Shown here: in pieces, positions 29,401-54,395 of the stretch | Layout: each line of letters opens with the position of its first letter | Position numbering within the stretch: the first letter of the stretch is position 1 | Assembly: GCA_964445745.1 (NCBI GenBank) | Contig: CAYULU010000001.1 | Location: 35,873-99,872 of the forward strand | Length of the DNA stretch: 64,000 nucleotides | From: an uncultured bacterium | Lineage (GTDB): Bacteria; Omnitrophota; Omnitrophia; Omnitrophales; Aquincolibacteriaceae | Direction: 5' to 3' | Notes under the pieces: generated by a model | Databases searched by the model: none | What the model was told of the DNA's origin: nothing | Seen by the model: only the letters and a program-made list of their open reading frames with translations | Position numbers and translations under genes: made by a program

Positions 29401-29633
29401 TTGTGACCGGAAAGATCGGGTTTCGGAGAAGTCTCTTGAGCGTTGTGGGTGACAGGGACTCTCTTAAGCAGACGGCGTCGGTGTTGCTTGCCGCGGACAA
29501 ACTTCTTGATGAATCCGTGTGGTCGTTGGGTTATCACTTTGTCTCTGTCGATAAGCTTGGCGGGCTGGAGATGCTGATGACGGAGCTTACGAACTTTATA
29601 CGGTCTGAGGCCCGAATGGCCGCCTCGGCATAA
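20493..29633 (+). CDS. Giant multidomain membrane protein (3046 aa). N-terminal signal anchor plus a TraB/GumN-like domain, HEAT-repeat arrays, an NTase-fold motif, a DUF218/YdcF-like domain, and a cupin-type PGI-like domain flanked by duplicated TM hairpin repeats.
   Basis: 9.1 kb ORF with ATG start, hydrophobic N-terminus SIVAFVTLVAFTVTTLVW. HEAT repeats around AVPALIRILED...VRFRSARALAEFAD. NTase motif GSYLWTDSPNDLDLVVIV. DUF218 motif IFIEDQSMNTGQNAQF. Cupin PGI motifs TEGHHH...PEVYE and PPGYQHISIN. Confidence 0.9.
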   Translation: MQNDPMFVPGFSWKRSKSIVAFVTLVAFTVTTLVWDPRAFAGTGVPVAGEVSAFAQGVLQIPAELGQVTETLVGDPKAPAFIHIQSAHGNYSAEKNIEKLLGFIEKNSSVKLMLLEGASGKLHPKMFRMFPAHPEFNQKVTDKLVREGYLTGPESFLIGSDDKTEGWGIEDLEAYKKDRESFIHVVEKEKVAEKFLGSLRATIDRRFSSKLNKDLLNLVRQEEAFGSGTVSFEGWLTVLKAASQKHLTLDLSDAFYQNQYPFLIRYFRLQAIGSKIDREKARHEADAFLVDLASRKVSEEVLENFKAILQTSETELLRTVSRTTDGYSTLRRAFDLAFSSLPKDFSMTQWPNWTLYAQHIILMQEMEGKGLHEETLKLKDKIQTALAKTADEKAYLSQARELYLLRRLFNLELTRPEYEELAQTVKTSDTQEIQTLYKTAMDFYSTAVERENKMFQNALTKMAGTKQQHAVIVTGGFHAEGLKKLVTSKGCSYIQITPRIAEVSKRDHEVYLRSILGSRDVETSQMSALLGIVDRAQRVAVTGVAATKDWARDVRSLVLGLINSENVSARQALSVSFSNSIFGSQTPALVPVIARAEVREKQAATKVVAVDSQINSIAQKLTLAAALAFTSVSAHADSVGVLSSFSSEQSVSVWFWGSVLSLGALFAGYFIVWRLFFPINWHLRRLLSNEYAVRSRAIEKLVSIGSKAVPALIRILEDKTNISSSNVIEILERIKDARSIPGLIVGLGDKSEEIRFRSARALAEFADARIVPTLRKTADGWLQDLRKQRGELEETLKQTPSTIEQEETRQEELVELGGRGDRGGVYTIGYEIVPTGRMETVSNSAYTDLSWRISRLEVVEREIASFLLRAEEVNHVRSEVRLTPAQEKQFQKALRDLQPKWWDGLLGEIDGNERKKRALKTLGELKDSRSFRVLKEKILLHQEEPNFPSQQAVKSMKEFPTDMLLSGLMPFLGSEDERVGQNMVSIFEGLEDPAIVLPMIQALEGRDPRARERAASVLLGSRDFRSLDAFLRVLKNLNESAEMRRTAISAIRNWNPSDLGKERTTQWVEALISCLDNPPTRDDAARTLGDLKDRRAIKPLVDRLMTIDPSMLPPVFLFALRDLQWEPKNVNEAIRFACGLRSDATIWDKVALFGPAAVPLLMDLLISKDFELRRNVATVLLKIADPKLAGLDRYLEWTQDGTPPEQRKLIFLTPEKIETIKRAFAEGRTIQVEYEEQEMVSHQESYLDTYGQDYFYVVVDTPGYLSVKITGMGQEIGSVSVARTVGPAVTASPNGFPEPYAKDVGFWEFRLPVFNAASEGLSVTRLRDALEVLKNRGWLWSHFESTHRERVNQRATDRLEQLLSKVHAVMITLYANGILSAATPLVSLQLAGSYLWTDSPNDLDLVVIVEGERNFEKMSASNHTNGFLPVIPGIETSYEVVGLETLRRAVGGDEVKDANVIRRKAIMYSVSVPLAGIDLFASQSIPFDSYVTMRNDLMTDASRAAWRDLKGDPAKIAAKRLWRQEESDAMEKWLAMQRRLISEGSTEELRKMHERLSQIDSLILAAEANLEEEKSKLARLRQQDVSFDAGASRSEASQKQTLRSEVRTQLGAEDYAAANGVFSYLAEQSQDIPMNPDVLIVLGNPDHEVNGTAAAALYHRLNPKWVLVAGKGKKDRPEAHEFRDVLVARGVPGDKIFIEDQSMNTGQNAQFGSKLLREAMENRDPDMLNRPITAVVTQKPMGQRLSTDIMEKQFAWPQGISFFPSAPRVPQVNGQTDNEEFFQLVAEALDQIRRFPDFARQKFIDPKAAQHPNEVTQAVGRLTALMQSRSETRLTLHQADDSGEQEKQFQKALRNFQLFSWKKVVPIVFYVGIHVGGFLLVLSFIVSYFDLDLKSLQDRYWLVLMGSPSFLMTVMFLRSLPGLLRQIPSVNDHIAGRQAEEEAGAESRSESRLSLTPLIGLPAELDLETLAVRYGPGVSFLKAWEKTMLSETPAGNGLPLWKSMAFAAEYMNAAGEVIQQPDLEKYYDPSKVLYHGHQGAYWSDPELQKLLAAQHLRPDVTVLPAGVIGREFLRTEGHHHLSGLPEVYETAYGTNGYLLFKTVSEDSEDIADVMYVMAEAGDHVLFPPGYQHISINTGSRPFVMTDWVSMKANSDFKYIKRHHGAPYLVVRGPDGQAQFERNAQYPGKVPPIRLVRPADEIKLGDQVIFKKGVPMFDLVKNGQIDLLAFLNDTNESGRYDELYKNAFRSESRLSVSSGISSDTDSVTGVTPAQEKQFQKATRNFQFFSWKRVLPIVLYVGIHVGGFLLVLSLIVSNFDLDLKSLQDRYWLVLMGSPSFLMTVMFLRSLPDLLRQMPSNNDHITGRQAEGEAGAKSRSEVRWTDSEERQFKEVLTGHQEGLPRGKFVMELLLAGMIGMISLVSRAAEAPRTRGGFTSISNPLFLKGLENVKGTYENASIENSTEIRAKGSVATQSFSSQRVDQETLHAHVADIPSLLESLYHEDSWVREQALTALRTIKTESVVTGLLKSLDDKTGLNVAARARVIQTLSEMDVLEAVPVFIRIANDPTELRSIQDIALLAIYSVRNPVAAPDLVKALSSDDAVLRFFILKALSEMPAVSVTEALKEGLHNPDPRIAESSFVALVQRGKIYEVNDPALVPFLKKMMAHGEFSYRHFAADALYRISKIQYYQAAYGPLLKEIIKMWAGIFAFILTPFGVARVLKKIQLHHYRERDFYASHTDSGIDFAGTVDKSAKYPRSESRNIEETRPGFFTSEIRSEMRWDEAVVTPRVLVESGSGSLAAKIGTAARVAANTVSPLLSSSPVYASEIAPQLFAGTEHYQSVPEIPGSFTAQWPVLGKIVSGSATASAERLVIDQRHGIPDKESVLPLVAFARYNPKTTVVLALIATEDQVSDFQKAVAALHGGKAWPQNLKVRAFADENAFIPEFNGFYNASAPLGRPVALVTDQEGSLVTGKIGFRRSLLSVVGDRDSLKQTASVLLAADKLLDESVWSLGYHFVSVDKLGGLEMLMTELTNFIRSEARMAASA
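26025..26348 (+). repeat. Intragenic direct repeat A (324 bp) inside giant gene 2. About 95% identical to repeat B at 27309..27632. Encodes a QEKQFQKA helix plus a two-helix TM hairpin plus RSExR.
   Basis: Near-identical nucleotide blocks seen directly. Spacing 1284 bp, in frame. Confidence 0.9.
27309..27632 (+). repeat. Intragenic direct repeat B (324 bp), paired with 26025..26348.
   Basis: Same as repeat A. The two repeats bracket the cupin-PGI-like domain. Confidence 0.9.
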
Positions 29634-36585: not shown

Positions 36586-39462
36586 ATGGAGACTATGATG
36601 GAACCGCGTGCGAGTATTGAACTTTTTAAAGCGGGACAGGGTCCCTGGCTTGACACGATCAGCCGGAGGCTTTTGAAATCCGGGCAACTAAAAAAATGGA
36701 TTGAGGACGACGGGCTCCTCGGTGTGACATCGAACCCCTCCATTTTTCAGCAGGCCATCACTCAGGGTGAAGGTTACGAGCAGGATATCCGAAAAATGCT
36801 CGCCCAGGGGGCTTCCACACTTGAAATTTATGATGCGCTTACAATCGCGGATATTCGAGAAACCTGCAAACTTTTTCTTCCGGTTTTTGAGAGAACACAA
36901 CAGGAGCATGGGTTCGTAAGTCTTGAGGTTCTTCCGTGCCTTGCGGCGAATAAAGAAGCCACGATCCGGGAAGCCAAACGGCTATTTTCGGCGGTTCATT
37001 GTTCCAATCTTATGATCAAGGTTCCGGCCACGCCAGCCGGGATTTTGGCGGTGGAGGAACTGATCGCTCTCGGAATTAATGTGAATGTGACACTGATTTT
37101 TTCCCAGGCGAATTACCGCGAAGTGGCCCAAGCGTATATTGCCGGTCTGACGCGATTTGCGGCGAAAGGTGGAGATCCCGCGAAGGTCCATTCGGTGGCG
37201 AGTGTTTTCGTAAGCCGAATTGATACGGAGATTGATAAACAACTGGATCTGAAACTTGCCGGGGAGCGGGACAGTGTGAAGCGAATGACGCTCGACGAAC
37301 TCAAGGGCAAAGCCGCGATTGCAAATGCCAAGCTGATCTATCAGGATTTTAAGGAGATTTTTTCTTCGGAAGAGTTCCGGTCACTCCGCGATCGTGGGGC
37401 ATTTGTCCAGAAAGTTCTCTGGGGAAGCACGAGCGCTAAAAATCCTTCCTATCCCGACCTTGTTTATGTTGAAAATCTGGTGGGTAACGATAGCGTCAAC
37501 ACCCTGCCTCAGGCCACATGGGAAGCCCTTTTGGATCATGGACAGATTCGCGCGAATTCCATCGAGGAGAATCTTGACGAATCGCGCGATACCATTTCCT
37601 GTCTTAAGAAGTTCGGAATTGATGTCCACGAGGTATGCGAGAAGCTACAACGGGATGGGGTCAAGGCCTTCGTCATGGCCTTTGAATCGTTGATGTCTGT
37701 GATCGAGAAGAAACGTTTTGAAAATCTTAAATGTGCCGGCACCGTCAAGGTGACGTATGCTCTCCCTGAAAAAACGGAAAAAGCCATTGGGGTTGCAATC
37801 AAGGATTTTGAAAAAAAAGATCTGCATGCCCGATGGCTTGCGAAGGACCCGACCCTCTGGACGAATGATCCGGCCCATCACAAAGTGATCTTGAACCGGC
37901 TGGGGTGGGTGGAAATCGCTGAGAAGGTGACTGGGAAACTTTATGAACTGGATCTTTTGCAGGCAAAGATCGCGAGAGAAAATGTCCGCGATATTGTATT
38001 GCTGGGTATGGGAGGTTCCAGTCTGGCGGCTGAAGTGATGTCGTCGATTCTCAAAAAGCCTTCCCACCGCTCACCGTCGGCGGTCAAGCCGCGGTTCCAC
38101 TTACTGGATACCACGGATCCGCTCAGTATTTCTCGGGTCAATAGCGTGATCCAGTACGATAAAACGATGTTTATCGTTGGAAGTAAATCCGGCTCTACCA
38201 TTGAAACCCGTTCTCAGTATCAATTTTTCTTTCATGCCGTCAAACGGTTCTATCGGGGCGATGAACCAAAAGCCGCGAGTCGGTTCGTGATAGTGACCGA
38301 TGAGGGGTCGCCGTTTGCCCAAATGGGGAAGGCCATGAACCTGGCGGGACTTTTTCTGAACCCCTCCGATATTGGCGGGCGCTATTCGGCGCTTTCACTT
38401 TTTGGACTTGTCCCGGCGGCGTCTCTCGGGACGGATGTTCGGAAAATGCTTAAAGACGCTCAAATGGCTCTCTCGAATATGAGAGACTCCAAGGACTTGA
38501 AAAAGAATCGCGGGATTTACCTCGGAATTGTCCTCGGGATCTTAGCGATTCAAGGGAAGGACAAGTTGACGTTTCTGACATCATCGTCACTGGCTTCTTT
38601 TGCGGATTGGGCGGAACAACTGATCGCGGAAAGTACCGGGAAGGAAGGTAAAGGTATTACCCCTGTTGCCGGGGAGCCTTTTCTCGGTCTGGAAAAATAC
38701 GGATCGAACCGTGTGTTTGTTCTTTTGCGGCAAAAGGGGGAAAACGAAAAGGGATGGGCGGATCGATCTCGTTCGCTCAAGGCGAAAGGTTTTCCGGTCA
38801 TTGATTGTCTTTGGGAAGATGGCATGAATGTTGGCGGGGAGTTTCTCGTCTGGGAAATTGCAACCAGCATTGCCGGCGTTCTCCTTCGGATCAACCCGTT
38901 TGACGAGCCCAATGTCAAGGAGTCAAAGGACATTACAGGGCGCATTCTTCAGAAAATGCAGAAAAAGAGAGCTCTGCCGAAGCCGGCTATGTCGCTTAAG
39001 GTGTCGTCGTCGCGCCTTTCTGCGATCGAAAAAAATCTTCTGGGCAGGTTTTTTAGCAAGTTGGATCCCAAGGGTTATCTATCGTTGCTTGCCTACATCG
39101 ACCGGACGGCGGATTCCAAAAAGGATCTGCAGGCCATTCAAAAACTTCTGGCGGCGGCACTTCGGGTGCCGGCTTTATCAGGGTTCGGCCCTCGCTATTT
39201 GCATTCGATCGGACAGCTCTATAAAGGCGGTCCCAAGAGCGGGAGTTTCATCGAGTTTTACGTTCGAGACACAAAGGATTTGAAGATCCCCGGCGAATTC
39301 TATGGTTTCAGCCAGTTGAAGACGGCGCAGGCGATGGGGGACTACTTGGCAACGTCAAACAAGGGACTTCCAGTGCTTGTGGTGGATCTTGGACGTGACC
39401 CCAACCGAGGGCTTCGAACCTTTGGTGCGAAATTAACGGCGTATCTGAAGTCCGTTGGATGA
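36586..39462 (+). CDS. Bifunctional transaldolase / glucose-6-phosphate isomerase (Tal-Pgi fusion).
   Basis: N-terminal ~370 aa transaldolase (GVTSNPSIFQQAI, active-site region). C-terminal SIS-type PGI (LLGMGGSSLAAEV, GSKSGSTIETRS). 958 aa. Confidence 0.85.
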   Translation: METMMEPRASIELFKAGQGPWLDTISRRLLKSGQLKKWIEDDGLLGVTSNPSIFQQAITQGEGYEQDIRKMLAQGASTLEIYDALTIADIRETCKLFLPVFERTQQEHGFVSLEVLPCLAANKEATIREAKRLFSAVHCSNLMIKVPATPAGILAVEELIALGINVNVTLIFSQANYREVAQAYIAGLTRFAAKGGDPAKVHSVASVFVSRIDTEIDKQLDLKLAGERDSVKRMTLDELKGKAAIANAKLIYQDFKEIFSSEEFRSLRDRGAFVQKVLWGSTSAKNPSYPDLVYVENLVGNDSVNTLPQATWEALLDHGQIRANSIEENLDESRDTISCLKKFGIDVHEVCEKLQRDGVKAFVMAFESLMSVIEKKRFENLKCAGTVKVTYALPEKTEKAIGVAIKDFEKKDLHARWLAKDPTLWTNDPAHHKVILNRLGWVEIAEKVTGKLYELDLLQAKIARENVRDIVLLGMGGSSLAAEVMSSILKKPSHRSPSAVKPRFHLLDTTDPLSISRVNSVIQYDKTMFIVGSKSGSTIETRSQYQFFFHAVKRFYRGDEPKAASRFVIVTDEGSPFAQMGKAMNLAGLFLNPSDIGGRYSALSLFGLVPAASLGTDVRKMLKDAQMALSNMRDSKDLKKNRGIYLGIVLGILAIQGKDKLTFLTSSSLASFADWAEQLIAESTGKEGKGITPVAGEPFLGLEKYGSNRVFVLLRQKGENEKGWADRSRSLKAKGFPVIDCLWEDGMNVGGEFLVWEIATSIAGVLLRINPFDEPNVKESKDITGRILQKMQKKRALPKPAMSLKVSSSRLSAIEKNLLGRFFSKLDPKGYLSLLAYIDRTADSKKDLQAIQKLLAAALRVPALSGFGPRYLHSIGQLYKGGPKSGSFIEFYVRDTKDLKIPGEFYGFSQLKTAQAMGDYLATSNKGLPVLVVDLGRDPNRGLRTFGAKLTAYLKSVG

Positions 39463-39560: not shown

Positions 39561-40367
39561 ATGTTTCAAAAGCGAAAAGTTTCGCTCCAAAATCTGAGGT
39601 TTCTTCTTCCTGCGGTTTTCTTGGGGGTGGGTATTTTTATCTCAGGATGCGCCTCTACGCCTCCGCCGGCCGCAATGCCCAATTTCCGTCCTGCAAGTGC
39701 CATGACGGTTAACCTGCCGGCTCCCACGACCGGCGGTATGCGTGACATCTACCATGTGGTCGGACCCTACGAGTCTCTTTGGCGGATTGCGACGATTTAT
39801 GGGAAGGACATGGACTCGATCATGCGCGATAACCAGATTTCAGATGCGACTAAAATTAAAAAAGGGCAGAGACTTCTGATCCGGAATACCTATGGGCCGC
39901 GTCCGAATATCCCGCTTTATCCCACAACGCGCTGGACTCATATTGTGATCCACCACACGGCAACCGATGTCGGGAACGCTTATACGATCGATTCTGCGCA
40001 TGTGAACCGTGGCTGGGAGCGTGGAATGGGATATGATTTTTTGATTGATAACGGAACTCATGGGAAAACCTTAGGACAAATTGAGGTGGGACCCCGATGG
40101 CTGAAACAGATTGATGGTGCTCATGTTAAAGAGGCGGATTGGAATAAAAAAGCGATCGGCATTGCCGTGATGGGAAATTATAGTGAAAATGCCATGCCCG
40201 AACGCATGATGGACAGTCTTGTTTTTCTCGTGGCTACTCTCAAAAATTTCTACAGAATACCGGAGCAAAATATTCTCGGACACCGCGATGTTCCGGGGTC
40301 GGCGACCGAGTGCCCGGGAAAGATTTTCCCCTGGAATGAATTTAAACGGCGGGTCCGGATGTATTGA
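39561..40367 (+). CDS. Lipoprotein N-acetylmuramoyl-L-alanine amidase with LysM domain (Amidase_2/PGRP-like).
   Basis: Lipobox ISGCAS after a hydrophobic leader. LysM YHVVGPYESLWRIATIYG...KKGQRLLI. Amidase_2 motifs IVIHHTATD and HRDVPGSATECPG. Confidence 0.85.
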   Translation: MFQKRKVSLQNLRFLLPAVFLGVGIFISGCASTPPPAAMPNFRPASAMTVNLPAPTTGGMRDIYHVVGPYESLWRIATIYGKDMDSIMRDNQISDATKIKKGQRLLIRNTYGPRPNIPLYPTTRWTHIVIHHTATDVGNAYTIDSAHVNRGWERGMGYDFLIDNGTHGKTLGQIEVGPRWLKQIDGAHVKEADWNKKAIGIAVMGNYSENAMPERMMDSLVFLVATLKNFYRIPEQNILGHRDVPGSATECPGKIFPWNEFKRRVRMY

Positions 40368-43555: not shown

Positions 43556-43733
43556 TATATAATAAGATAAAAAATACTATAAAAACATCCTTGAAATAGC
43601 TTCGCTGTGATGGCATGCTTTAAGTAGATGTAAATAATCAACATATAAAAATTAGATCAGCTTACTACCGTTGGCTGTCTTGACGGGCTGGCGTGTTGAG
43701 GAACTTCGAACCTTTAGTAAGACAACATTTTTT

Positions 43734-46700
43734 ATGAGCGATAAAACTATCAAAAACAAGAGTGTTCAATTTCGGGTTACTGCCCTTGCGGTCTTGGTCT
43801 GTTTTATAACCACGAGCGTATCGTTACCTGTGTCCGCAGATGCTTCGTCCGCAGGTCCTGCTGTTCCAACCCTTTTGCCCTTTGCTGAGTTGACCATTCC
43901 AGATGAGTTGGGAACCATGACGAAAGCGGTTGGAGCTCAAAGTGTGGCGGCGGGTGATCCGGGAAAAACCAGTGTCCAGGATTCTTCTCAACGAACCGTT
44001 ATCCTGATTCAAGATGCCCATGCCGTGAATGATGCCCAGAATAAAATTCAACAAATAATCGCGCATCTGCAGACCCATCATTATGCCGACGTGCTCCTTG
44101 TGGAAGGGGCGCAAGGTCGTTTAGACCCCACGATACTCCGGAATTATCCCGATAAAAATGTAAAACAGAGAGTCATCAACGAATATCTCGAGCGAGCAGA
44201 GCTTGCCGGTGTGGAATCTGCCGCTGTATTAAATGACACGCTTGGCCGTTTCGAAGGAGCGGAAGACTGGGCCCTTTATTCGGAAAACTTCGATGCCTAT
44301 CAGCGAGCGCAGGCGGAAAAAGAAAGTCTCCTGGACGTCCTGTCGGGTTATGAGCATAAGCTCGAAATGGAAAATACCGGTCGAATTAATTCGAGGCTGG
44401 AGGATTTTCTGAAACAGTGGACAGGGTTTCGATCCGGCTCTGTTTCCTTTCATGACATGCTTATTTCCCTGCAGGAGTTTTCAAGTCTGGCGAAAGAGGG
44501 GGATGGTTTCTCAGAGCTCAAAAGAATCCTGGATGCACTGGGTTATGAGAAATCAAGCCAACCGACTGCGCTCGAACCTGCGGTGAAAAAAATGGCCGCC
44601 GAATTCAAACAGAAATTTGCGAACGTGATGGATGTCCGTGACCAGGCGAACTTTTACATGAACTATCAGAAATTCCTGACGGGGCAGTTGGGAGCAGGTG
44701 AAATGCTGAGTCATCTTCTTCGTCTGGGACGGAAGTTGGGGAAGGAACCCAGGCTCAGTCCGGAAATGCGTCGTCTTCTGGGGCACACGCAGACTTTGGC
44801 CGCGATCAAGGGCAACAGACTTTTTGAGGAGCTGAACCGGTTTCTTGTGATGGTCGCCATGAGCCTCGCCCAAAACTCCGACGATGTAAGCACGGTCGAG
44901 CGATATGAAAAATTGTTCATTCTTGAAGATCTTGTAAAACTGGAGTTGACCCATCACTCGATATCCTCATTAATGAAATCTGGAGCGCACAGTACGAAAG
45001 TCGAAACGAGTTCCCGTGCCCCTGATTTACAGGCCCCCGACAAAATCAAAGTCCTGAATTTGGATGATTTTGATTTGGGATTTCTTTCAGATTTCGGATT
45101 GAGCGTTTCGGATTTTGAAAAAAGACTGCAACCGGCCATTGATTTTTACCGGGCCGCCTTGGAACGTGACCGGGTGTTCTATGAGCGGATTAAAGCAGTG
45201 CCCGAAAGCGATCGTACGATTGTCCTGATTGCCGGAGGCTTTCATACCAGCGGGATCGAACGACTGCTTCGTGAGAATCAGGACTCGTATGCGGTTGTGA
45301 CTCCCAGAATCGAATCCCTCAAAGGATCGGAAAATTATTTTCGCGTCATGAATAACGATTTTTCCTACCAGAAATATCTTGGCACTACCTACTATGATGG
45401 ATTGATCCGTCATGCGATTCGCAAATTGACGGAAGGCCTCGGTGAGGCTGAGCTCCGGCAAACAGCCAAGCGTTGGCGCGATAATCTTATCCGGGACCTT
45501 GCCTCGCAAAACAGGATCACGGACTTCGGGCAATATAGCCACTATCTTGATGATTTAAATCAGGTTTATGCTGAACGTTTTGCCAAAGATCTTAAACCTC
45601 TTACCAAGGAAGATATCCTGGAGGTGATTAAAAAGGAGTTAGAGAAGTTTAAATCAGATGTGCTGGTTTCACTGCGGAGGCAAGTCGAAGGTGATCTGCA
45701 AAGTACCACGGCCGGGATTCAGGGTCTGGAGGATCAAAAAGAATCTTCCGGCACAAAGCCTTCGGATCTTGCGCTTGATATTCCCGTTTCCAAGCCATCG
45801 ATGTTGAGCGCGGCTCTAGCGCTTGCTCCCAGGGTTCCGATATTAAAACTGCCTCTCAGTGAAGTCCGCCAGCCGACGGTAGTGGCCAGCGATATTCCTG
45901 AAGCCTTGAGGGAACCTGTGTCGCTAGAGGCCAGCGGCATTGAGATCGGGCCGGGGGTAGGAGAAGAAGGTTCAGGGCGGAGTGAGACCCGGGTTAATGA
46001 TGCGGTGAAAGAGAAAATTGAAAGCATTCGTGCCGGATTGCATCAGTTACTGCGCTGGCTTGTTGCAAAAATGGCGGTCGGCCCGTGGCGGGAAAAGATG
46101 CTCGGGTTTTTACTTGAAAGCGACCATGTGAAAATTCTGATCGACGACGGGAAAAAACATCAGCTTAAGCGATACGTCGCGAAATACGAGCCGAAGACCG
46201 GGCGCGTATATTTGTCTCAGGTGTTTCCGGGACATTATTCAAAAGAGAGCCTTTTAAGCCATCTCCCCGGGGCTGCTCAGCCGGAGATCTATAAAGGGAA
46301 AGGGGTGGAATTAATTTTGGGGGATGATGGTCGACCGTATCTATCAGTTAAATTTGATCAACCGGTGCTAATTGTTGATAGCGATCAGAAAATCCTTCAG
46401 TCAGAAAACATCAAGCCTCTTCTGGTGCCGCTTCCTAAAGTGAGCGAGACAATTGCTTTTCTCAAGAAAACGGTGCCGGGTTTCAGCCGTTGGCAGAAGG
46501 CGCGTGTGAAGGCACTGGAACAGCAAAAACTCGAAGCAGCGAGATTATGGTTTAATGCAGGCCGTTTTATGGCAAGAGAGTCCAAGGCCTTTGATAAGGA
46601 TGGGGATGTCGATACACTGGAATACGGATCCAGCCGATTTGAGGTCGGCATATCGGATTCCGGGGAGGAAATTGTTGTTAGGGTATTTAATCGTGATACG

Positions 46701-49700
46701 GGAATACTGGACGGGATTCTTTTCTACCCGTTTTTGGTTGGTGCCTGGTTCACGGCAGGTCAAGGATACGCGAATGAGATCCCGGTTTTGGATCCTGGTC
46801 TTCCGCCGATGGCTCTGAGATTTAGCTTGGGAGACAAGGGGGTTTATGTTTCCTCGGTTGCGGAGATTTCTGTCTACTTGCAGGCGGATGGTGTTCGTTC
46901 TGAGGAGTTAATACCGAGTTTCGAAGAAGCTGTGGCCAAGAATCCTGATTACCCCGGTGTTCTCCTTCCTCACACTGCCGGGAAAATCGAAAAACTAAAG
47001 TTGTTTCCGTTGGAACAGTCTCCGGACATGATAGGTCCTCCCTTTCATGTCAATCCTGAGGGCCCAAATGCCCCTTATATTCTTCGGGCGAGAGCTGAGG
47101 TTCGGAGTGAGGATGGGCGCCGGCCCGCTGGGATGATATCCAATGTTCGTAAGATTCTCATGGCCGGCATCTTATCTATTGCGATGATGAGTTCTGCGAT
47201 TGCGATGTCACCCCGAAGTTTTGGAGCCTTTCAAGGCGGACTTCAGACCCTTGGTTGGTATACAGGAAAAGTTGACCGAAAGGATGGACCCCGGACACAG
47301 TCGGCTGTCAGGACGCTCCAGACCATACTTCGTGATGAATTGGGGTTTACAGGGATTCGTGTTAACGGGCGCTATGACGATCCAGCGACACTGGCGGCAG
47401 TTAAAGAACTCCAGCGAAAGTTTCAGGAGCTCTGGACTGCGAAATATCGGGGCGGAGTGGACGGAGTTTTAGGCCCAGCAACGGCGCCTTTTTTTAAGCG
47501 GTACCTGGAACTTCTCAGAAAAGGGAGAGAGGCCCAAGGGCTTGTCGGTCAGGGTTTGTCAGATTCTGTGGTTTTGCCGTCCTATTTTCTATCGGATCCG
47601 GCCACCGAAGTTCTGAATAACCCAACCTTGCAGGCAGGTTTCTCTGGCTTGGGTTTTCAGGTGATTCAGCGGTTACTGGTATCTCGGCAACTTGTTCCGA
47701 AAACGCAAGAAACCAGGAATTTTATCTACACCTATCTGTATGAGACCCATCAGATAGTTCAGACGGCTAAACAAACGCTGACGGACTCCGAGTTTCAACG
47801 TGTTTTTCATTCAAAAAAATCTGAAATGACTCTGGAGCGGGTGGCCCAACTCGCGATGTTCGTTTTTGATCTGAATAATCACGAGAGCATGGGACATGTC
47901 CATATCAAAAACAAACGAGGCAGCGATTTTTCTCAAGCGCAAATCGTGATAGGGACTCGAAAAGAACTTTTTCAAAAAAACTTGTTTAAAAAAATAGCGG
48001 GAGTTACAGAGACTCAGCCTGCGACATCGAAGGAGTGGGAAGAATTTCTCGTAACTGGTTCTTCCGCGAACCGAAACCGCATTGCGATGGTGATTATTCA
48101 TTTTTTAAGAGCTCCCCGAGGCTTGTCTTTTGAGAAATTGTTCCCGATAGATACTGTGGAAGGATCGAAAATTTGGGGGAAATATTACCAAACCCAGTCG
48201 CTTGAAAAAGCGATGAGGAATTTCAGCGAAAGGGCTAAACGTTTTAGAGATGATTGGGGCCAAGTGACACAATATTATTTGTCACACCAGCGCTCGGAGG
48301 TGAGGGCTGAGGGAAGCTTGCCTGATGATGTTCGTGATTCGATGTTGCCGGAAAAATTACCGAATGTTGTGATACTGTCCCCGGTTTTTAATGAGCGGGA
48401 TAAGCTTCCGGAGGTTTTGGAAAATATTAAACAGCAGAAATATTTAAAGAATGTGATTTTTGTTGATGATGGTTCAAGTGACACGACGGCGACGTTTCTG
48501 CGGGATTCGGGTGTTTATTTTATTTCTTTTGCCAAAAACGCACAGAAAGAAGGCGCTCTTTTGAATGCGCTGGAAATCTTGCAGAATCGCTATGGGTTGC
48601 CCGATTATTTTGTGGCGATAGACGGAGATTCTTATTTTGGCGGAGAGAACATCCTCGCTGTTCTGAAGAAAGCGATTAAGGAGATGGAAAAGGGGGGCAA
48701 TGTGGCCCGCCCGATTGATATTGAAGCTCATTTGACCGCCCGTTCCGGGGCTCTCGAATGGCTCCAGGGGATCCACTGGTATTTAACGATGGGGATCCGC
48801 ACGATCTATTCAAAAATTTCTTTTTTCCCTCCGAGTTTGTTGGGCGGAGGAAATATTTTTAAAACCCAGGTCTTTTTGGATGCCGTTGCGAAAAGAAAGG
48901 CCGGTTTCGAAGCAGGGGATGTGGAATTAAACGGGATTATTAGTTCGATGGGGAAAGTGGCGAAACCCCTTTCGACCGTCAGGGTCAGAACCGAAGTTTT
49001 TAAGAAATGGAATGACTTTTTTAAGCAACAAAGAAGGTGGGCTCGTGCCCAGCTCGAAGGAACTCCAAACTGGTTTTTTGCTGTTTTTCTGTCAGGCCTT
49101 GTTTTATTTGACGCGTTCATTTTATGGAATCTCCCGGCATTTCTGGCCCTGACGGCGGTGTTAGCGGTTGCGTCTGTTTTTTCGGTCATGTTGCGTTACG
49201 GGGTTATGCAGTTCCAGAAGTTTGCTAGCGCGGGTTCGAAACGAAATTTGCCTGAACAACAATCGATTCGTGTCCGGTTTTGGCGTGATGTTGTGTTGTT
49301 ATCGCCGTTACTTGCTCTTTATGAAACTGTCAATATGTTTACCATGTTCAACGTGGCAACCTTCCAACAATTGCAGGCTCCCAAAAGTATTCCTCCGTGG
49401 ACCGATACGACTGCTACACGCTCCGAGATTCGTAGCGATGAGATTGATCCTAATCCTAATGATTATGGTTTAAGGAGGGGGAGACTGAGCCGGGATTCAG
49501 AAATAATGCTGGGGTCTCTTGCGGATTATCTTTCCAGAAACCAGATAGCCAGAGATGACGCGAACCTGATAGCTCGGACACTAGTTCGTATGAAACCTCT
49601 GTCTCTGGAACTACTCCGTGATTGGGGAGTCCTCACAGCGGAAGAAACCAGGCTGGTCGCCGCCGGGGATATTGGCAAAATCATGATTTCTCAGGATATG

Positions 49701-52700
49701 AGTAATTCCCTTGCCCAAAGAATGCGGCGTCTTCTGGAATCTTATGATCAACGAGAATTTTATGATCAACGACGCTACACCAGGGCACAAAAGGATGTTC
49801 TCTTGTCGCGGCTTATTCCCGTTGACCAGATCGATGCAATTTTGGCCCGAAGTCCGGACCTTAATGACGGCGTTGTGATTGAGATGCTGGACAGCCGCTT
49901 TTCTCTGATTCTTCAAATGGATCGCGCCATTGAAATTGCGGCAAGTCTGCGAGAGTTGGGCATTGTTTCTAGTCTGGCCTGGAGAATTTTGATCAAGCAG
50001 GGGACTGATCGGGCATTGTCTTGGGCCTCTGACGCACAGGCGGTCGTTGAAAGAATTAAGGACGCTCAAGGAGTGAACGGACAAAGAAATGCCTGGCTGA
50101 TGATTATGAATCACGGCATTGAAAAAGTGGAAGAAGCTGAACGTCGAGGGACACTTCCTAAATTGATGAACGCGTGGGACACACGCTCCGAGCTTCGCGA
50201 CAATGACATCCCCGAAGGGCTGAAAGAGGAGATTCAGAGGGCTTATGGCAGGGCTGGCGGGCCGGAGATTTTTGCAGAACATTTATCCATGGAAAATATT
50301 ATCCATCAGGTTCTGGAAGATTTTGGCAAAGACAACAACGTGAAGCTGGTAGAAGGAAAGGATTTTGAGCTTTTTTGGTACCGGCAGCGTTTTGGAATTA
50401 TCATGAAAAATGCCGAATCTAACAAATATAACACGGACGAGGTCAAAGCCGAAATTATTGAGCGACTTAAATCTTATTACCATAAGTATAAGCCCAAAAT
50501 AAATGTAAACGTTGAGCCTCTTGATGATGGAGTTGAAGTATCTTACCGGATCACTCCGGCCTCGCTGACGGAATTCGGAAAGTTTTTCGGAACGGCAGAT
50601 ATTCAATATTATGATGAAGGTCACAGATTCCCGAGGCCTTTTACCCCCGAAGAAATACGGGAGAAATTTGTCCATAAGGCGGAAATGTTCTTGAGAGGAA
50701 TGGAACTTTATGAGCTACCACCTGATGCAATCGAAAAATTCAAGAAGTGGGCATTGGGTGTTGTTGCCTCTGCACTTGCCAATTCGGACCGGTATGGACG
50801 GAAGGAGATTATCCGGACGGAGTCGATCAAGCGTAGTGTTCGTGAAAGACATGAGGACGGATACAGGTATACGACCTTGAATGCCATGAGGAAAAATGCT
50901 GAGGGAAGTGTTCTGTTTGATTTCTTGCTTCGTGAGTTACGTCGCCGCGAAAATGCCAAACGAGTTGTCTATCTAGCTCGCGGTGCGGGGAGCTTGAAGA
51001 AAGTCGCACGGTATGCGAATTGGTTGTTTTCTCCCGAAATTGTGCAGGGGGCTCGTGAGAATTTTCTTTTTATGCTTTCGCAGGATACCGAATGGGATGT
51101 TATTCGTGACATTAAAGATCTATTCCGATTTTCTCCTGAGACATACCTCCCGGGGGAAGGGGGCGATCCTGATGAGTTTGTGGAAAGCGTTTCCTATGAT
51201 GTCTTGGAAAGACAAGCGATGGAAATTCTTGAGGATTTAGACAATGGGAAGAGTCGTTTGATGCACGGACCAGGACTGGGTGCGCGGGAAATTAAACCTC
51301 ACGGCGAGGATGGAAAAGGCCCTAATCGATTTGCTCAGTTTTTTGACAGAATCTATGACTGGGTCAAGGAGGCAGGGATTGTGGACGGTCTTCAACCTGG
51401 GGAGACTATCCTGGTCGTGGATGAGTCTTCCAGCGGGACTTACCCCTGGATTTTGAAATATGTAATTGAAACACGATACCGCGCTGAGTTGGCAAAACGG
51501 TTGGGAAAACCTGTATCGGAGATCAAGCTCCAGGTTATTTTTTGGGCGGGCGGTCGATCGAATAATGACTATGGAATCGTAGGTTTTCCTATGTTTTACC
51601 CCAATGACTATAAGAAAACTTTTGGGTTCGGAGATTTTGCCAGCCACGCAATTAGCGTTGCAGGAGAAAATATGCCGCATCCGGTAAAGGTTGGTCGGTA
51701 CAGCAAGGGGGATGCGGATGAAGGGGAGTATGAGGTGGAAGAAACTGATGTGCTTTTGGGGGCTTACCTGAATTCGATGTTTATCTACAATGAAGTGGTG
51801 AAATTTTATAGCGAGCTGAATGGTATTGTGCTCAAAAAGGACAAAACCGAACAAGAGTGGAATCTGGTTTTGCATTACCTGGCACTTAAACTGCCCCCAG
51901 AGGTAGAGGTCACCCCTGCGGCGCTCGCCCGTGCGTCCGGATTTGCCTTAACGGCAGATGATATCCAGAAGGAACTGTCTCGCTCTGAAACGAGGGGGTC
52001 TGTTCCTTTGAAGGACGGGTTTGAGAAATTCGTTGAACGGGTGGATGTGATCCGAAGAGAATGGGACACTTCTGTAAAGAAAGCAGATGAAGGAAAACAA
52101 GGGGCTAAAGAATCATTCGCATCGGAAGCTGTCGTGAGTCTGGGCGCTTTAAAGAGTGGTCATCTTTGTCTGGTGCGAGGCAATTTTGACAAGCTGACTC
52201 AGGGTCTTCGTACCGCTCTGGATGCGGTCCGGGATGAATTTCCGGTATTTAAATCAGGGGATGAAACTGACCCATTATCGGGCGAGCTCAAAATGCTTAC
52301 TGAGCTTGTTCGCAATATCTCGCAACATGTCCAGAGTAAGGAAGGGATTGTGGCGATCCAGTTCGATAAGGAAGCCAAACGGTTGTATGTGGCAGCGATT
52401 GATCGAGGCGCCGGTTTTTCCTTCCGGACGCAAGGTGCTGAAGAAGCGTCTGGCATTGCAATTCGTGATGCGGGGCATTTTGTACAAAGTGGAATTAATC
52501 GTGTTGGCGAAGGAATTGGAATGAGAGCTGTTGTCCGGCAATGCGAACACGTTTTAATACGCAGTGGCGATAAAGAATGGTCTGATGAAGATCTTAAGTC
52601 GCAAGGGGTAATTCCGGGAGTTGAGCGAAAGGATGGTCTGCCGGGCTCTCTTGTTTCGGTGAGTGTTAATCTTGAGGAATCCATGCAGATCATTAATAAC

Positions 52701-54395
52701 GCGATAAAAATACGTATGATCGATAAAAAGTTAAAGGATCTTGCGAATGCGGTCGGCAACTTCTCGCGTTTTTCAGATCTTCGGTGGGAGTTTGCTTCTG
52801 AAATTCCCTGGCCTGAATTAGTAAGAGTTACGTCGCCGGAAGAACAATATCGTCCTCGAAATGGTGTGGACAGAACTTATGGCACACAAGAAAACCGCTG
52901 GAATTATTGGTCCAATCAAATTGACGTCCGTTATGCTTTCTTGCATCTGATCGGTAATGCCCTGGAGCAGAAGCGGCCTCTGACAATTAAAGAGGTTGAA
53001 AAATATCTACGGACAGCTCACCACCGATTAATTTTCGGGGTGAATGATCAATCGCCCTATTATTCTCCGACGTTGCTTAGCATGGGATTTCCTAATCCTG
53101 AGGTAGCTTTGAGAGCGGGCACTGGTAAACTTTACTTGACTAAAGAAGGCATTACCGGTTACACGCAAAAGCTCAACGTTCTTCTGGAGCGTTTAGCGCG
53201 GCCCAAGTTGACCGTTGAGGATATTATTCAGCCTCTCTTTGATCTTCATCGAGCTATCATTGTCCCGGAAGTGCCTCGAGAATCCAAAGGGGCCTTTGCC
53301 TTTCCATTCGCGAATAATTCATTTTCGATGAATCAAATCAATGCCGTAAGGCGTTTGCTGGGGCACGCCGGAATTTCTCACGACGGGATCGATTTTGCGT
53401 TGCTTCAGAACAGAAAGGATGTTACTCGCGCCTTAAAATATTTCACAGCTCTGATGCGCGGGGAATCGTACCCCTCCGATGAGAATGCCTTTGCCCCCAC
53501 AGTGGCAGGCTCAGCGCAGGCGCCTTCAGATGTTCGCCGCGCTGAGATCCGCGAATCTCCGGGATTTGAGCCTCTTGAACTGGAAGGGGAGTTGGAAGGT
53601 CAGTTGAAAGATCGGGGGTTTGCGCTTTTGGCGGAGCTTGAAAAACGGCCGGAGCTGAGGGATTATGTCCTAGGCTCGGAATTTGAAGAATTGGTCAAAA
53701 AACTGTTGGGAATCTTTGGGGATGTGGCAGTGTTTGTGAAGGGTGTCCGAGAGGCGATGATTCCTAAGATTTTGGCGGCTGAAACAGTGGATCTGGAACT
53801 TGCGAGTATCTTGCCGGATGCGATGTCAGCTTTGACAGCCACGTTGAAACAGGTTAAAGGAAATGTGACCATTGCCGTGGGTGATATGCTGGATGTCATG
53901 GATCAGTTTATAGAAATTCCAAGCGAGTATACAAGTCAGGTCAATGAAATTGGCGTGACGGGAATGTTGCACCCTAAGGTCCGGACTCTTTTGCGGGAAA
54001 GAGGCGTTACCATCCGATCCGTCAAGCCAAAGTGGAATTTTATTTCCCGAAATCAAAGCCAGGTACCTTATGTGACCGATACGAATTCCCTGGTTGAAAT
54101 GCTTGCCGGTGTTTTTGACCCGATTCTGGCGGATCAGGTCGAAACTGGGGATGTTTCGGTACAGCGCTATCGGGACCGATTTTTGATTGTGGCGGCGATC
54201 CATCTTGCTGATATCAGGAGAATCGGAAAGGCGATGAGCCAATCCGAGATACTGGACGAACTTTTGCGACGTCTCAACTTGAAGGAGCAGGAAGCGATGA
54301 TTGAGATCCGGGGAGGGAGGTTTGTCGTCTCCAGCACGGCGATCCAGCTTTACCTCAAGATGCAAGCTGAAAAATCCATCCAAAGGGCCGCTTAA
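43734..54395 (+). CDS. Giant multidomain membrane protein (about 3550 aa). Signal anchor plus TraB/GumN-like N-domain (paralogous to giant protein 2), a PG-binding domain, a processive GT2 glycosyltransferase with TM helices, and a GHKL-ATPase-like domain.
   Basis: 10.7 kb ORF. Track start is TTG at 43671; I prefer the ATG at 43734 (MSDKTIKNK plus hydrophobic helix plus SADA). PG_binding_1 LQTLGWYTGKVDRKDGPRTQSAVRTLQ. GT2 VILSPVFNERD...VIFVDDGSSDT...AIDGDS...FKQQRRWARAQ. GHKL ELVRNISQH...AAIDRGAGF...GEGIGM. Confidence 0.9.
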   Translation: MSDKTIKNKSVQFRVTALAVLVCFITTSVSLPVSADASSAGPAVPTLLPFAELTIPDELGTMTKAVGAQSVAAGDPGKTSVQDSSQRTVILIQDAHAVNDAQNKIQQIIAHLQTHHYADVLLVEGAQGRLDPTILRNYPDKNVKQRVINEYLERAELAGVESAAVLNDTLGRFEGAEDWALYSENFDAYQRAQAEKESLLDVLSGYEHKLEMENTGRINSRLEDFLKQWTGFRSGSVSFHDMLISLQEFSSLAKEGDGFSELKRILDALGYEKSSQPTALEPAVKKMAAEFKQKFANVMDVRDQANFYMNYQKFLTGQLGAGEMLSHLLRLGRKLGKEPRLSPEMRRLLGHTQTLAAIKGNRLFEELNRFLVMVAMSLAQNSDDVSTVERYEKLFILEDLVKLELTHHSISSLMKSGAHSTKVETSSRAPDLQAPDKIKVLNLDDFDLGFLSDFGLSVSDFEKRLQPAIDFYRAALERDRVFYERIKAVPESDRTIVLIAGGFHTSGIERLLRENQDSYAVVTPRIESLKGSENYFRVMNNDFSYQKYLGTTYYDGLIRHAIRKLTEGLGEAELRQTAKRWRDNLIRDLASQNRITDFGQYSHYLDDLNQVYAERFAKDLKPLTKEDILEVIKKELEKFKSDVLVSLRRQVEGDLQSTTAGIQGLEDQKESSGTKPSDLALDIPVSKPSMLSAALALAPRVPILKLPLSEVRQPTVVASDIPEALREPVSLEASGIEIGPGVGEEGSGRSETRVNDAVKEKIESIRAGLHQLLRWLVAKMAVGPWREKMLGFLLESDHVKILIDDGKKHQLKRYVAKYEPKTGRVYLSQVFPGHYSKESLLSHLPGAAQPEIYKGKGVELILGDDGRPYLSVKFDQPVLIVDSDQKILQSENIKPLLVPLPKVSETIAFLKKTVPGFSRWQKARVKALEQQKLEAARLWFNAGRFMARESKAFDKDGDVDTLEYGSSRFEVGISDSGEEIVVRVFNRDTGILDGILFYPFLVGAWFTAGQGYANEIPVLDPGLPPMALRFSLGDKGVYVSSVAEISVYLQADGVRSEELIPSFEEAVAKNPDYPGVLLPHTAGKIEKLKLFPLEQSPDMIGPPFHVNPEGPNAPYILRARAEVRSEDGRRPAGMISNVRKILMAGILSIAMMSSAIAMSPRSFGAFQGGLQTLGWYTGKVDRKDGPRTQSAVRTLQTILRDELGFTGIRVNGRYDDPATLAAVKELQRKFQELWTAKYRGGVDGVLGPATAPFFKRYLELLRKGREAQGLVGQGLSDSVVLPSYFLSDPATEVLNNPTLQAGFSGLGFQVIQRLLVSRQLVPKTQETRNFIYTYLYETHQIVQTAKQTLTDSEFQRVFHSKKSEMTLERVAQLAMFVFDLNNHESMGHVHIKNKRGSDFSQAQIVIGTRKELFQKNLFKKIAGVTETQPATSKEWEEFLVTGSSANRNRIAMVIIHFLRAPRGLSFEKLFPIDTVEGSKIWGKYYQTQSLEKAMRNFSERAKRFRDDWGQVTQYYLSHQRSEVRAEGSLPDDVRDSMLPEKLPNVVILSPVFNERDKLPEVLENIKQQKYLKNVIFVDDGSSDTTATFLRDSGVYFISFAKNAQKEGALLNALEILQNRYGLPDYFVAIDGDSYFGGENILAVLKKAIKEMEKGGNVARPIDIEAHLTARSGALEWLQGIHWYLTMGIRTIYSKISFFPPSLLGGGNIFKTQVFLDAVAKRKAGFEAGDVELNGIISSMGKVAKPLSTVRVRTEVFKKWNDFFKQQRRWARAQLEGTPNWFFAVFLSGLVLFDAFILWNLPAFLALTAVLAVASVFSVMLRYGVMQFQKFASAGSKRNLPEQQSIRVRFWRDVVLLSPLLALYETVNMFTMFNVATFQQLQAPKSIPPWTDTTATRSEIRSDEIDPNPNDYGLRRGRLSRDSEIMLGSLADYLSRNQIARDDANLIARTLVRMKPLSLELLRDWGVLTAEETRLVAAGDIGKIMISQDMSNSLAQRMRRLLESYDQREFYDQRRYTRAQKDVLLSRLIPVDQIDAILARSPDLNDGVVIEMLDSRFSLILQMDRAIEIAASLRELGIVSSLAWRILIKQGTDRALSWASDAQAVVERIKDAQGVNGQRNAWLMIMNHGIEKVEEAERRGTLPKLMNAWDTRSELRDNDIPEGLKEEIQRAYGRAGGPEIFAEHLSMENIIHQVLEDFGKDNNVKLVEGKDFELFWYRQRFGIIMKNAESNKYNTDEVKAEIIERLKSYYHKYKPKINVNVEPLDDGVEVSYRITPASLTEFGKFFGTADIQYYDEGHRFPRPFTPEEIREKFVHKAEMFLRGMELYELPPDAIEKFKKWALGVVASALANSDRYGRKEIIRTESIKRSVRERHEDGYRYTTLNAMRKNAEGSVLFDFLLRELRRRENAKRVVYLARGAGSLKKVARYANWLFSPEIVQGARENFLFMLSQDTEWDVIRDIKDLFRFSPETYLPGEGGDPDEFVESVSYDVLERQAMEILEDLDNGKSRLMHGPGLGAREIKPHGEDGKGPNRFAQFFDRIYDWVKEAGIVDGLQPGETILVVDESSSGTYPWILKYVIETRYRAELAKRLGKPVSEIKLQVIFWAGGRSNNDYGIVGFPMFYPNDYKKTFGFGDFASHAISVAGENMPHPVKVGRYSKGDADEGEYEVEETDVLLGAYLNSMFIYNEVVKFYSELNGIVLKKDKTEQEWNLVLHYLALKLPPEVEVTPAALARASGFALTADDIQKELSRSETRGSVPLKDGFEKFVERVDVIRREWDTSVKKADEGKQGAKESFASEAVVSLGALKSGHLCLVRGNFDKLTQGLRTALDAVRDEFPVFKSGDETDPLSGELKMLTELVRNISQHVQSKEGIVAIQFDKEAKRLYVAAIDRGAGFSFRTQGAEEASGIAIRDAGHFVQSGINRVGEGIGMRAVVRQCEHVLIRSGDKEWSDEDLKSQGVIPGVERKDGLPGSLVSVSVNLEESMQIINNAIKIRMIDKKLKDLANAVGNFSRFSDLRWEFASEIPWPELVRVTSPEEQYRPRNGVDRTYGTQENRWNYWSNQIDVRYAFLHLIGNALEQKRPLTIKEVEKYLRTAHHRLIFGVNDQSPYYSPTLLSMGFPNPEVALRAGTGKLYLTKEGITGYTQKLNVLLERLARPKLTVEDIIQPLFDLHRAIIVPEVPRESKGAFAFPFANNSFSMNQINAVRRLLGHAGISHDGIDFALLQNRKDVTRALKYFTALMRGESYPSDENAFAPTVAGSAQAPSDVRRAEIRESPGFEPLELEGELEGQLKDRGFALLAELEKRPELRDYVLGSEFEELVKKLLGIFGDVAVFVKGVREAMIPKILAAETVDLELASILPDAMSALTATLKQVKGNVTIAVGDMLDVMDQFIEIPSEYTSQVNEIGVTGMLHPKVRTLLRERGVTIRSVKPKWNFISRNQSQVPYVTDTNSLVEMLAGVFDPILADQVETGDVSVQRYRDRFLIVAAIHLADIRRIGKAMSQSEILDELLRRLNLKEQEAMIEIRGGRFVVSSTAIQLYLKMQAEKSIQRAA

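Follow-up and report, generated by a model that had tools for sequence, protein, structure and literature searches.

We have analysed a stretch of 64,000 nucleotides (nt; the window) from contig CAYULU010000001.1 of an uncultured bacterium of the Omnitrophota, positions 35,873 to 99,872. It contains three giant open reading frames (ORFs), the third of which (ORF3) encodes a peptidoglycan (PG)-binding domain followed by a family-2 glycosyltransferase (GT2). An earlier note on this DNA had proposed that these two domains form a single machine that polymerises and exports a polysaccharide while anchored to peptidoglycan. We consider it probable (at roughly 0.6) that they are instead two separate neighbouring cassettes, and hold with similar confidence that ORF3 encodes a modular giant protein of an Omnitrophota-like bacterium, built like beads on a string from protein-sized cassettes parted by the sequence R-[S/A]-E-x-R. 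The PG-binding and GT2 cassettes are coupled by polypeptide only. Most likely, judging from the sequence, the GT2 cassette is a catalytically competent membrane-interface GT2 of the PgaC/NodC-like kind that stands beside a wall-binding cassette of periplasmic type.

ORF3 lies on the plus strand as a single uninterrupted ORF of 3574 codons (43671-54395), and probably starts at the ATG at 43734 to give a product of 3553 amino acids (aa). This 3553-aa product was called in two independent assemblies, identical and with the same neighbours, so that ORF3 is not an assembly accident; it is protein P0002 of the HMMER search described below. The protein reads as eight cassettes between junction peptides, with lengths of 769, 366, 395, 371, 250, 594, 514 and 280 aa. 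The PG-binding cassette (cassette 3, aa 1146-1540) lies between RAEVR (aa 1141) and RSEVR (aa 1541), and the GT2 cassette (cassette 4, aa 1546-1916) is delimited exactly by RSEVR (aa 1541) and RSEIR (aa 1917). The coordinates of these and other features are collected in Table 1.

Borders of the two cassettes and their relatives

A full HMMER scan of 1.8 billion representative proteins returned 849 relatives of the GT2 cassette. The four closest are P0002 (the window protein itself), P0003, P0001 and P0004, all of which are parts of giants, and the best relatives are embedded in proteins of 1-7.6 kaa (thousand aa). P0001 is the same gene as in the metagenome-assembled genome (MAG) Omnitrophica bacterium RIFOXYB12_FULL_50_7 (L004), the only GTDB genome with a close relative. 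The 4465-aa ORF of L004 shares only aa 1541-1922 with ORF3, at 50% identity and bracketed by RSEVR and RSEMR; in sequence comparison it is on this one relative that an Omnitrophota assignment of the window depends. The same pattern is seen in P0004, where the GT2 cassette is bracketed by junction peptides and homology starts at the border. The identity of P0003 to ORF3 is 72% before and 65% after an insertion between the PG and GT2 cassettes; the extra 857 aa contain four membrane-helix-like segments and two TrmB-like methyltransferase cassettes. Taken together, the P0003 insertion and the patterns of L004 and P0004 indicate that cassettes have been gained, lost and shuffled at the junctions. 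Other relatives carry GT2 without the PG module. In the sequences compared, the adjacency of PG-binding and GT2 cassettes is local to this genome and is not a conserved pair.

Cassette 3 has the build of a wall-associated protein of the periplasm: it opens with a signal-peptide-like helix of its own, and continues with PG_binding_1 and some 270 aa whose fold is unknown. Its hydrophobic segment MISNVRKILMAGILSIAMMSSAIAMSP begins 10 aa after RAEVR and resembles an ordinary Sec signal peptide. The PG_binding_1-like domain proposed by the earlier note is matched by PF01471 above the cut-off of 23, both in the whole ORF3 protein (aa 1187-1218, 26.6 bits) and in cassette 3 scanned alone (34.9 bits over two stretches, E 1.8e-8); its orthologue in P0003 reaches 58.8 bits. 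Like the PG_binding_1 domains of periplasmic and extracellular enzymes, that of ORF3 scores above the threshold of Pfam and comes immediately after a signal-peptide-like helix. Unlike those, it is joined to no recognisable hydrolase; its binding of peptidoglycan is a prediction. The remainder of the cassette (aa 1272-1540) is 72% identical to P0003, and within it no Pfam match, PDB match or hydrophobic segment was found. A word-indexed protein search with the PG cassette returned nothing, the query itself included, the database apparently holding none of these giant proteins. The same search with the GT2 cassette returned one homologue.

In cassette 4, PF00535 (GT2) matches aa 1568-1672 with 49-50 bits against a cut-off of 23.3 (E 3e-13 to 7e-13). 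As profile matches, those to PF00535 and PF01471 are far beyond chance. The second GT2 family named in the earlier note, PF13641, was not detected in the ORF3 copy by the Pfam scan. All of the peptides that the note had quoted are found in frame 1 of ORF3, at or near the positions it gave. Its delineation of the GT2 unit requires revision in two respects: the unit ends not at 49340 but about 90 nt further, at RSEIR (49419-49433), and QQRRW is followed not by two transmembrane helices but by three hydrophobic helices, a pair at aa 1799-1846 and a third at aa 1874-1898. The third could be either membrane-spanning or interfacial.

Membrane topology

There is no 19-residue window with a Kyte-Doolittle hydropathy of ≥1.0 between aa 1181 and 1794, and cassette 4 has no membrane helix N-terminal to its glycosyltransferase domain. 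Since no hydrophobic segment lies between PG_binding_1 and GT2, the membrane would not separate the two in a chain left whole.

The distribution of charge favours a different arrangement. The flanks of the helix at aa 1161-1181 (+3/+1) and of the N-terminal helix at aa 34-58 (+3/0) both favour an N-in/C-out orientation, and the helix pair at aa 1799-1846, with flanks of +4/+3, is probably a hairpin with both ends cytoplasmic. By this charge bias the PG domain would lie outside and the catalytic domain of GT2 in the cytoplasm. The part of the earlier prediction that put them there agrees with it, but the continuous chain does not allow it. Two consecutive N-in/C-out helices are impossible in one chain, and the preferred topologies of the cassettes are therefore in conflict when the protein is uncut; behind the N-terminal signal the helix at aa 1161-1181 would have to run from out to in. 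It is possible that the chain is cut, or its units inserted independently, at the junctions, or that one domain lies in the wrong compartment. The simplest resolution is cutting or independent insertion at the junction peptides. We note that anchor helices similar to the MISNVRKILMAGILSIAMMSSAIAMSP segment follow junction motifs also in ORF2 and in L004.

The GT2 cassette as an enzyme

In size and layout cassette 4 corresponds to a complete stand-alone membrane GT2 of the lineage of PgaC, NodC and cellulose synthase. Stand-alone relatives of 370-420 aa have the same layout, a glycosyltransferase domain followed by C-terminal helices, and carry DFETGD and KQRRRW. An AlphaFold2 (AF2) model made with only two sequences had a pLDDT of 37. 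Rerun on an alignment of 35 family members it reached a pLDDT of 79 and a pTM of 0.78, with the GT-A domain above 90. We number the module such that residue 1 is aa 1546 of ORF3. In the model G204-D205 marks the exact start of a helix that resembles the finger helix of cellulose synthase, and QQRRW lies within the next long helix (235-252), which is followed by three more helices. The predicted fold is GT-A, with a site for the DxD-bound metal ion and the nucleotide sugar.

The motifs support this assignment. The D, DxD, base Asp and QxxRW elements, whose alignment had been proposed as a check, are all present in the proper order and spacing, with 36 residues from the base Asp to the Q of QQRRW. 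They are invariant among the 35 sequences, where the invariant positions are D55, S57, D59, D106, D108, G180, D205, Q241 and W245. In the window protein, P0003, L004/P0001 and P0004 every catalytic column is kept (DD, DxD, GD, QQ[RK]RW) at an overall identity of 36-70%.

Compared with solved structures, the profile of the 35-sequence family matches the Pyrobaculum calidifontis mannosyltransferase (PcManGT, PDB 6yv7) best (E 9e-37). It matches BcsA over almost its whole length (profile positions 6-361, E 9e-31), ceramide glucosyltransferase over positions 4-327, and also hyaluronan synthase (HAS) and chitin synthase (Chs). The best Foldseek matches of the AF2 model are Chs1, XlHAS1 and CvHAS. 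The likeness to cellulose, chitin and hyaluronan synthases that had been noticed at the outset is thus borne out at the level of the fold. A metagenome scan gave only generic matches to the N-terminal part of GT2 proteins.

Among named families, PgaC/IcaA and NodC fit the cassette and its stand-alone relatives best. As in those enzymes, membrane helices come after a GT-A domain that carries D, DxD, the base Asp and Q(R/Q)RRW. Unlike them, the cassette has no N-terminal membrane helix, has AGD in place of TED or GED, and lies inside a 3.5-kaa protein. Its scores are about one tenth of the NCBIfam thresholds (PgaC_IcaA, TIGR03937, 37.5 bits against 422.3; NodC, TIGR04242, 21.1 against 550), and no match to the CelA family was reported for the ORF3 copy. 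It differs from HAS of Chlorella virus and Xenopus (8snc, 8smm), BcsA (4p00) and Chs1 (8k3x) in having neither a gating loop nor PilZ, and is 13-19% identical to them. The gating-loop motif is FxVTxK in BcsA and WGT[RK] in HAS, CHS and NodC; a pattern search found neither in cassette 4 or in six relatives. In the structures of HAS, BcsA and Chs, six to eight or more membrane helices form the glycan channel. With only two or three C-terminal helices the GT2 module could not form a channel of the BcsA or HAS type as a monomer, so that any export would need oligomerisation or partners.

These features bear on the model of the earlier note, in which a periplasmic PG_binding_1 domain tethers the protein to the sacculus and a cytoplasmic, processive GT2 threads a beta-glycan through its own helices. 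Several points speak for it: the protein carries the full set of four synthase signature motifs, its closest structural counterparts are HAS, BcsA and Chs, the charge bias fits PG outside and GT2 inside, and there are wall-related neighbours such as the LysM-amidase gene at 39561-40367. We nevertheless regard it as highly improbable. The chain does not cross the membrane between the two domains, which belong to different cassettes whose adjacency is not conserved; the helices are only two to three in number and all C-terminal, with no gating-loop motif; and the scores fall far under the thresholds for PgaC, NodC and CelA.

From the observed fold, motifs, cassette borders and distribution among relatives, we infer an activity, donor, acceptor and topology for the GT2 unit as follows. 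The GT-A domain would lie on the cytoplasmic face of the membrane, anchored by the C-terminal helical hairpin and possibly the third helix, and would bind a nucleotide sugar through DD1599/1600 and D1651-x-D1653 together with a metal ion. D1750, at the tip of the finger-like helix, would deprotonate the acceptor, while QQRRW on the interface helix would hold the terminal sugar of a membrane-proximal acceptor. The outcome would be an inverting transfer that forms a beta linkage. The retention of QxxRW and the base Asp argues for a real chain-extending enzyme, so far as sequence can tell, although a long polymer is no likelier to be the product than a short oligosaccharide or glycolipid.

A related alternative is that the GT2 is a non-processive interface transferase that adds a single sugar to a lipid or lipid-linked oligosaccharide, in the manner of PcManGT, with its 'minimal cellulose-synthase-like fold', and ceramide glucosyltransferase. 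Both of these enzymes likewise carry D, D, D and (Q/R)xxRW. The extensive match of the profile to ceramide glucosyltransferase, the small membrane part and the missing gating loop would all be accommodated by such an activity. PcManGT itself is a stand-alone archaeal enzyme, and the alignment of the profile with it (26-235) ends before QxxRW; it reportedly acts in N-glycan synthesis and not in polymer export. The nearest NCBIfam names, however, are those of synthases of polymers and oligomers (PgaC/IcaA and NodC), and nothing points to a lipid acceptor. We consider a non-processive transferase a serious rival but rather unlikely, if a good deal less so than the wall-anchored export machine.

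A number of observations weigh against a competent GT2 in a cassette of its own. D1750 sits in AGD, where the Glu of the classical TED is replaced by Gly. The pLDDT is only about 50 over helices 260-320. When a profile is made from no more than the four closest sequences, its matches to solved structures are confined to the nucleotide-binding, N-terminal half (E ~1e-4); the link to the processive synthases is therefore transitive, by way of more distant relatives on which the AF2 model leans. The calling of membrane helices used only charge counts and Kyte-Doolittle hydropathy. Independent assemblies show the ORF intact, so that a single chain is made at least initially, and no internal promoter, terminator or Shine-Dalgarno sequence above chance was found before Met1156, so that nothing supports internal initiation. 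Lastly, in the more distant giants P0005-P0009 Pro stands in place of the base Asp and QxxRW has decayed, which shows that members of this cassette family can lose their activity.

The degraded copies raise the question of whether the GT2 of ORF3 might be catalytically retired and kept mainly as a membrane anchor or scaffold of the giant protein. It would be consistent with this that the GT2 cassette provides the sole internal membrane-helix-like segments of P0004, P0007 and P0009. A retired anchor form of the cassette therefore does exist, but the clade of the window protein, with P0003, L004/P0001 and P0004, keeps all the catalytic columns, and retirement in ORF3 seems to us highly improbable. 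We prefer a competent GT2 adjacent to, and separate from, the wall-binding cassette.

Junction peptides and other features of the window

R-[S/A]-E-x-R occurs seven times in ORF3 against 0.35 expected from shuffles (aa 770, 1141, 1541, 1917, 2172, 2771 and 3290), ten times in ORF2 (20493-29633) against 0.29 expected, and three times in ORF1. Within the window it is about 20-35 times commoner than expected and confined to the three giant ORFs, where it stands at cassette borders; the window's 12 ordinary ORFs contain no copy. Searched de novo, the top gapped 5-mer is of the RSExR type in ORF2, ORF3, P0003, P0004 (as RAExR, 13 copies), P0007 and P0009. Among 58 sites position 1 is always R, position 2 is S (38) or A (20) and position 4 is mostly L or V, while the flanks are unconserved. 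The codons vary synonymously (CGN/AGR for Arg, TCN/AGT for Ser, GAA/GAG for Glu), and this free variation indicates that selection acts on the peptide and not on the DNA. It rules out an origin of the motif at the DNA level, as a recombination site or RNA signal. Giants of other lineages with the GT2 cassette (P0008, P0005, P0031/P0042 and P0029) carry recurring peptides of their own, namely GARLA (7 copies), GSRL[SA], AGLEE (5-7) and KDGG (4), which suggests that junction peptides are lineage-specific.

R-[S/A]-E-x-R is thus a candidate processing or recognition site. One possibility, which we put forward tentatively, is that the giant ORFs are bacterial polyproteins, made of complete, in-frame protein-sized units, and that a junction peptide particular to each lineage (R-[S/A]-E-[LVIMT]-R in this one) is the site of processing or recognition. 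Either of the two conserved modules, the N-terminal 'QDAH...EG...GGFH' module or the C-terminal one, might read the junction. If this were so, the PG unit would reach the periplasm by its own signal peptide and the catalytic domain of the GT2 unit would stay cytoplasmic on insertion, resolving the topological conflict, and the missing cleavage points of Omnitrophota giant proteins would be supplied. The motif is also found nine residues before the stop codon of ORF1 (RAEMRAAEAIAKSA, 19899-19913) and five before that of ORF2 (RSEARMAASA, 29601-29615), which is an odd placement for a simple cleavage site.

The N-terminal module occupies aa 22-770 of ORF3 (43734-45980) and the N-terminus of ORF2 (20493-22300). 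It comprises a signal helix, IQDAH...AQ.NI...LEG..G, about 400 aa and GGFH, and in the form IQDAH ... EG ... GGFH is common to ORF2, ORF3 and at least 12 giant proteins in the database. A C-terminal module ending ...A[AS]A is likewise common to ORF2, ORF3 and many relatives. Against Cofac_haem_bdg (ChaN/Tiki superfamily), one of 12 members of the N-terminal module matched, with E 5e-4, and a match was also found in ORF2; its profile gave only spurious EF-hand matches against the PDB. A protease of the Tiki/ChaN type is weakly suggested by this, and we treat it as a lead only. PDB sequence searches with ORF3 cassettes 1, 3 and 8 gave no match.

Giant proteins of Omnitrophota with glycosyltransferase, HEAT, methyltransferase and glucose-phosphate-isomerase domains together with membrane helices have been described (West-Roberts et al. 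2023, bioRxiv 10.1101/2023.11.21.568195; see also PMC10066038). Their predicted localisations are implausible and proteolytic processing is suspected, the cleavage points being stated as unknown (bioRxiv 10.1101/2023.11.21.568195). That giants of this phylum contain glycosyltransferase domains is therefore already known, and the junction peptide is the more novel lead. West-Roberts et al. 2023 stresses GT5 and GT1 rather than a GT2 of the QxxRW type and reports no junction motif. The words 'motif' and 'cleav...' appear nowhere in the text of a 2026 Omnitrophota preprint, and a literature text search for the motif strings found nothing relevant.

The window proteins invite direct comparison with these giants, the 'Archaeovorin'-type proteins (West-Roberts et al. 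2023; reportedly also Kizina et al. 2022). They resemble these in their multi-enzyme content (GT2 and PG_binding_1 in ORF3, HEAT and isomerase in ORF2, TrmB-like in the relative P0003). The closest genome match is an Omnitrophota MAG. They differ in size, at 3-6.6 kaa compared with >30,000 aa, and in lacking the SecA-DEAD-like domain. By Pfam no SecA-DEAD, C39 or S8 domain was found in ORF3, nor any SecA domain in ORF1 or ORF2. A cellulose-synthase-like GT2 and a wall-binding domain can now be added to the enzyme domains carried by giant Omnitrophota-type proteins, which are thought to serve in attachment to, and attack on, prey cells. More widely, these giants are built of whole-protein units with sharp, motif-marked borders that are shuffled between relatives, and the borders provide rational points for dividing them into pieces to be modelled or expressed. 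The question of cleavage becomes experimentally addressable through the R-[S/A]-E-x-R junctions and the conflict in topology between PG and GT2.

Table 1. Positions in the window of ORF3 and of the features discussed.
Feature	Residues (aa)	Coordinates	Strand	Remarks
Giant gene ORF3		43734..54395	+	3553 aa from ATG; open from 43671
N-terminal signal or anchor helix	34-58	43770..43844	+	hydropathy 2.13; flank charges +3 N side, 0 C side
R-[S/A]-E-x-R sites in ORF3		45978-45992, 47091-47105, 48291-48305, 49419-49433, 50184-50198, 51981-51995, 53538-53552	+
Junction peptide RAEVR	1141-1145	47091..47105	+	upstream border of PG-binding cassette
Signal-peptide-like segment MISNVRKILMAGILSIAMMSSAIAMSP	1156-1181	47136..47213	+	hydropathy 1.94; flanks +3 N side, +1 C side; N-in/C-out
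PG_binding_1 domain	1187-1271	47229..47483	+	PF01471, two stretches
LQTLGWYTGKVDRKDGPRTQSAVRTLQ		47241-47321	+	frame 1
GVDGVLGPAT		47454-47483	+	frame 1
Remainder of PG-binding cassette	1272-1540	47484..48290	+	~270 aa without recognisable family
Junction peptide RSEVR	1541-1545	48291..48305	+	PG-binding/GT2 border; homology to L004 and P0004 begins here
GT2 catalytic GT-A domain and interface helix	1565-1795	48363..49055	+	contains DD, DGD, D1750, QQRRW
VILSPVFNERD		48369-48401	+	frame 1
VIFVDDGSSDT		48453-48485	+	frame 1
DD	1599/1600	48465-48470	+	GT2 key residues
AIDGDS		48615-48632	+	frame 1
DGD	1651-1653	48621-48629	+	GT2 key residues
Putative base D1750	1750	48918-48920	+	GT2 key residue
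FKQQRRWARAQ		49020-49052	+	frame 1
QQRRW	1786-1790	49026-49040	+	GT2 key residues
Hydrophobic helix pair	1799-1846	49065..49208	+	48 aa; AF2 helices 254-274, 276-308; flanks +4/+3
Third, moderately hydrophobic helix	1874-1898	49290..49364	+	hydropathy 1.47; AF2 helix 316-357
Junction peptide RSEIR	1917-1921	49419..49433	+	downstream border of GT2 cassette; homology to L004 ends here

A tRNA gene search of the window found none. ORF1 (57-19943; 6628 aa) has no Pfam match at E ≤1e-3, and its dozen or so membrane-helix-like segments fall into two clusters, at aa 3956-4227 and 5068-5531. ORF2 (3046 aa) contains HEAT repeats, a cupin-type glucose-6-phosphate isomerase and DUF218. It also contains a duplicated anchor unit, in the form of two near-identical mini-cassettes of about 115-125 aa at 25977-26336 (aa 1829-1948) and 27234-27620 (aa 2248-2376). 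In each the junction motif is followed by ...QEKQFQKA.RNFQ.FSWK and a membrane helix (PIV.YVGIHVGGFLLVLS). The LysM gene at 39561-40367, which lies 3.3 kb upstream of ORF3, also encodes Amidase_2 (N-acetylmuramoyl-L-alanine amidase) and indicates that the organism handles peptidoglycan. A single 958-aa ORF at 36586-39462 encodes a transaldolase (PF00923) fused to a phosphoglucose isomerase domain (PF00342).

Two further observations concern relatives of the GT2 cassette. P0001 appears in the metagenome scaffold L001 as a free-standing GT2 gene, or as a case of stop-codon recoding, but this is an artefact: the sequence matches the giant gene of L004 at 99.8% identity, and it is flanked upstream by a gap in the scaffold and downstream by a single GGA-to-TGA change. 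Positions 1-2155 of L001 are 99.8-100% identical to 9630-11714 of L004; the gap of N is accompanied by AT-rich filler and the GGA-to-TGA change comes right after RSEMRSGL, and because of these defects the protein database lists a spurious 'stand-alone' GT2 gene of 375 aa. In P0013 (5394 aa) the GT2 cassette is part of a larger unit that is repeated three times in tandem, and in two of the three copies a coiled-coil-like insertion splits the nucleotide-binding half.

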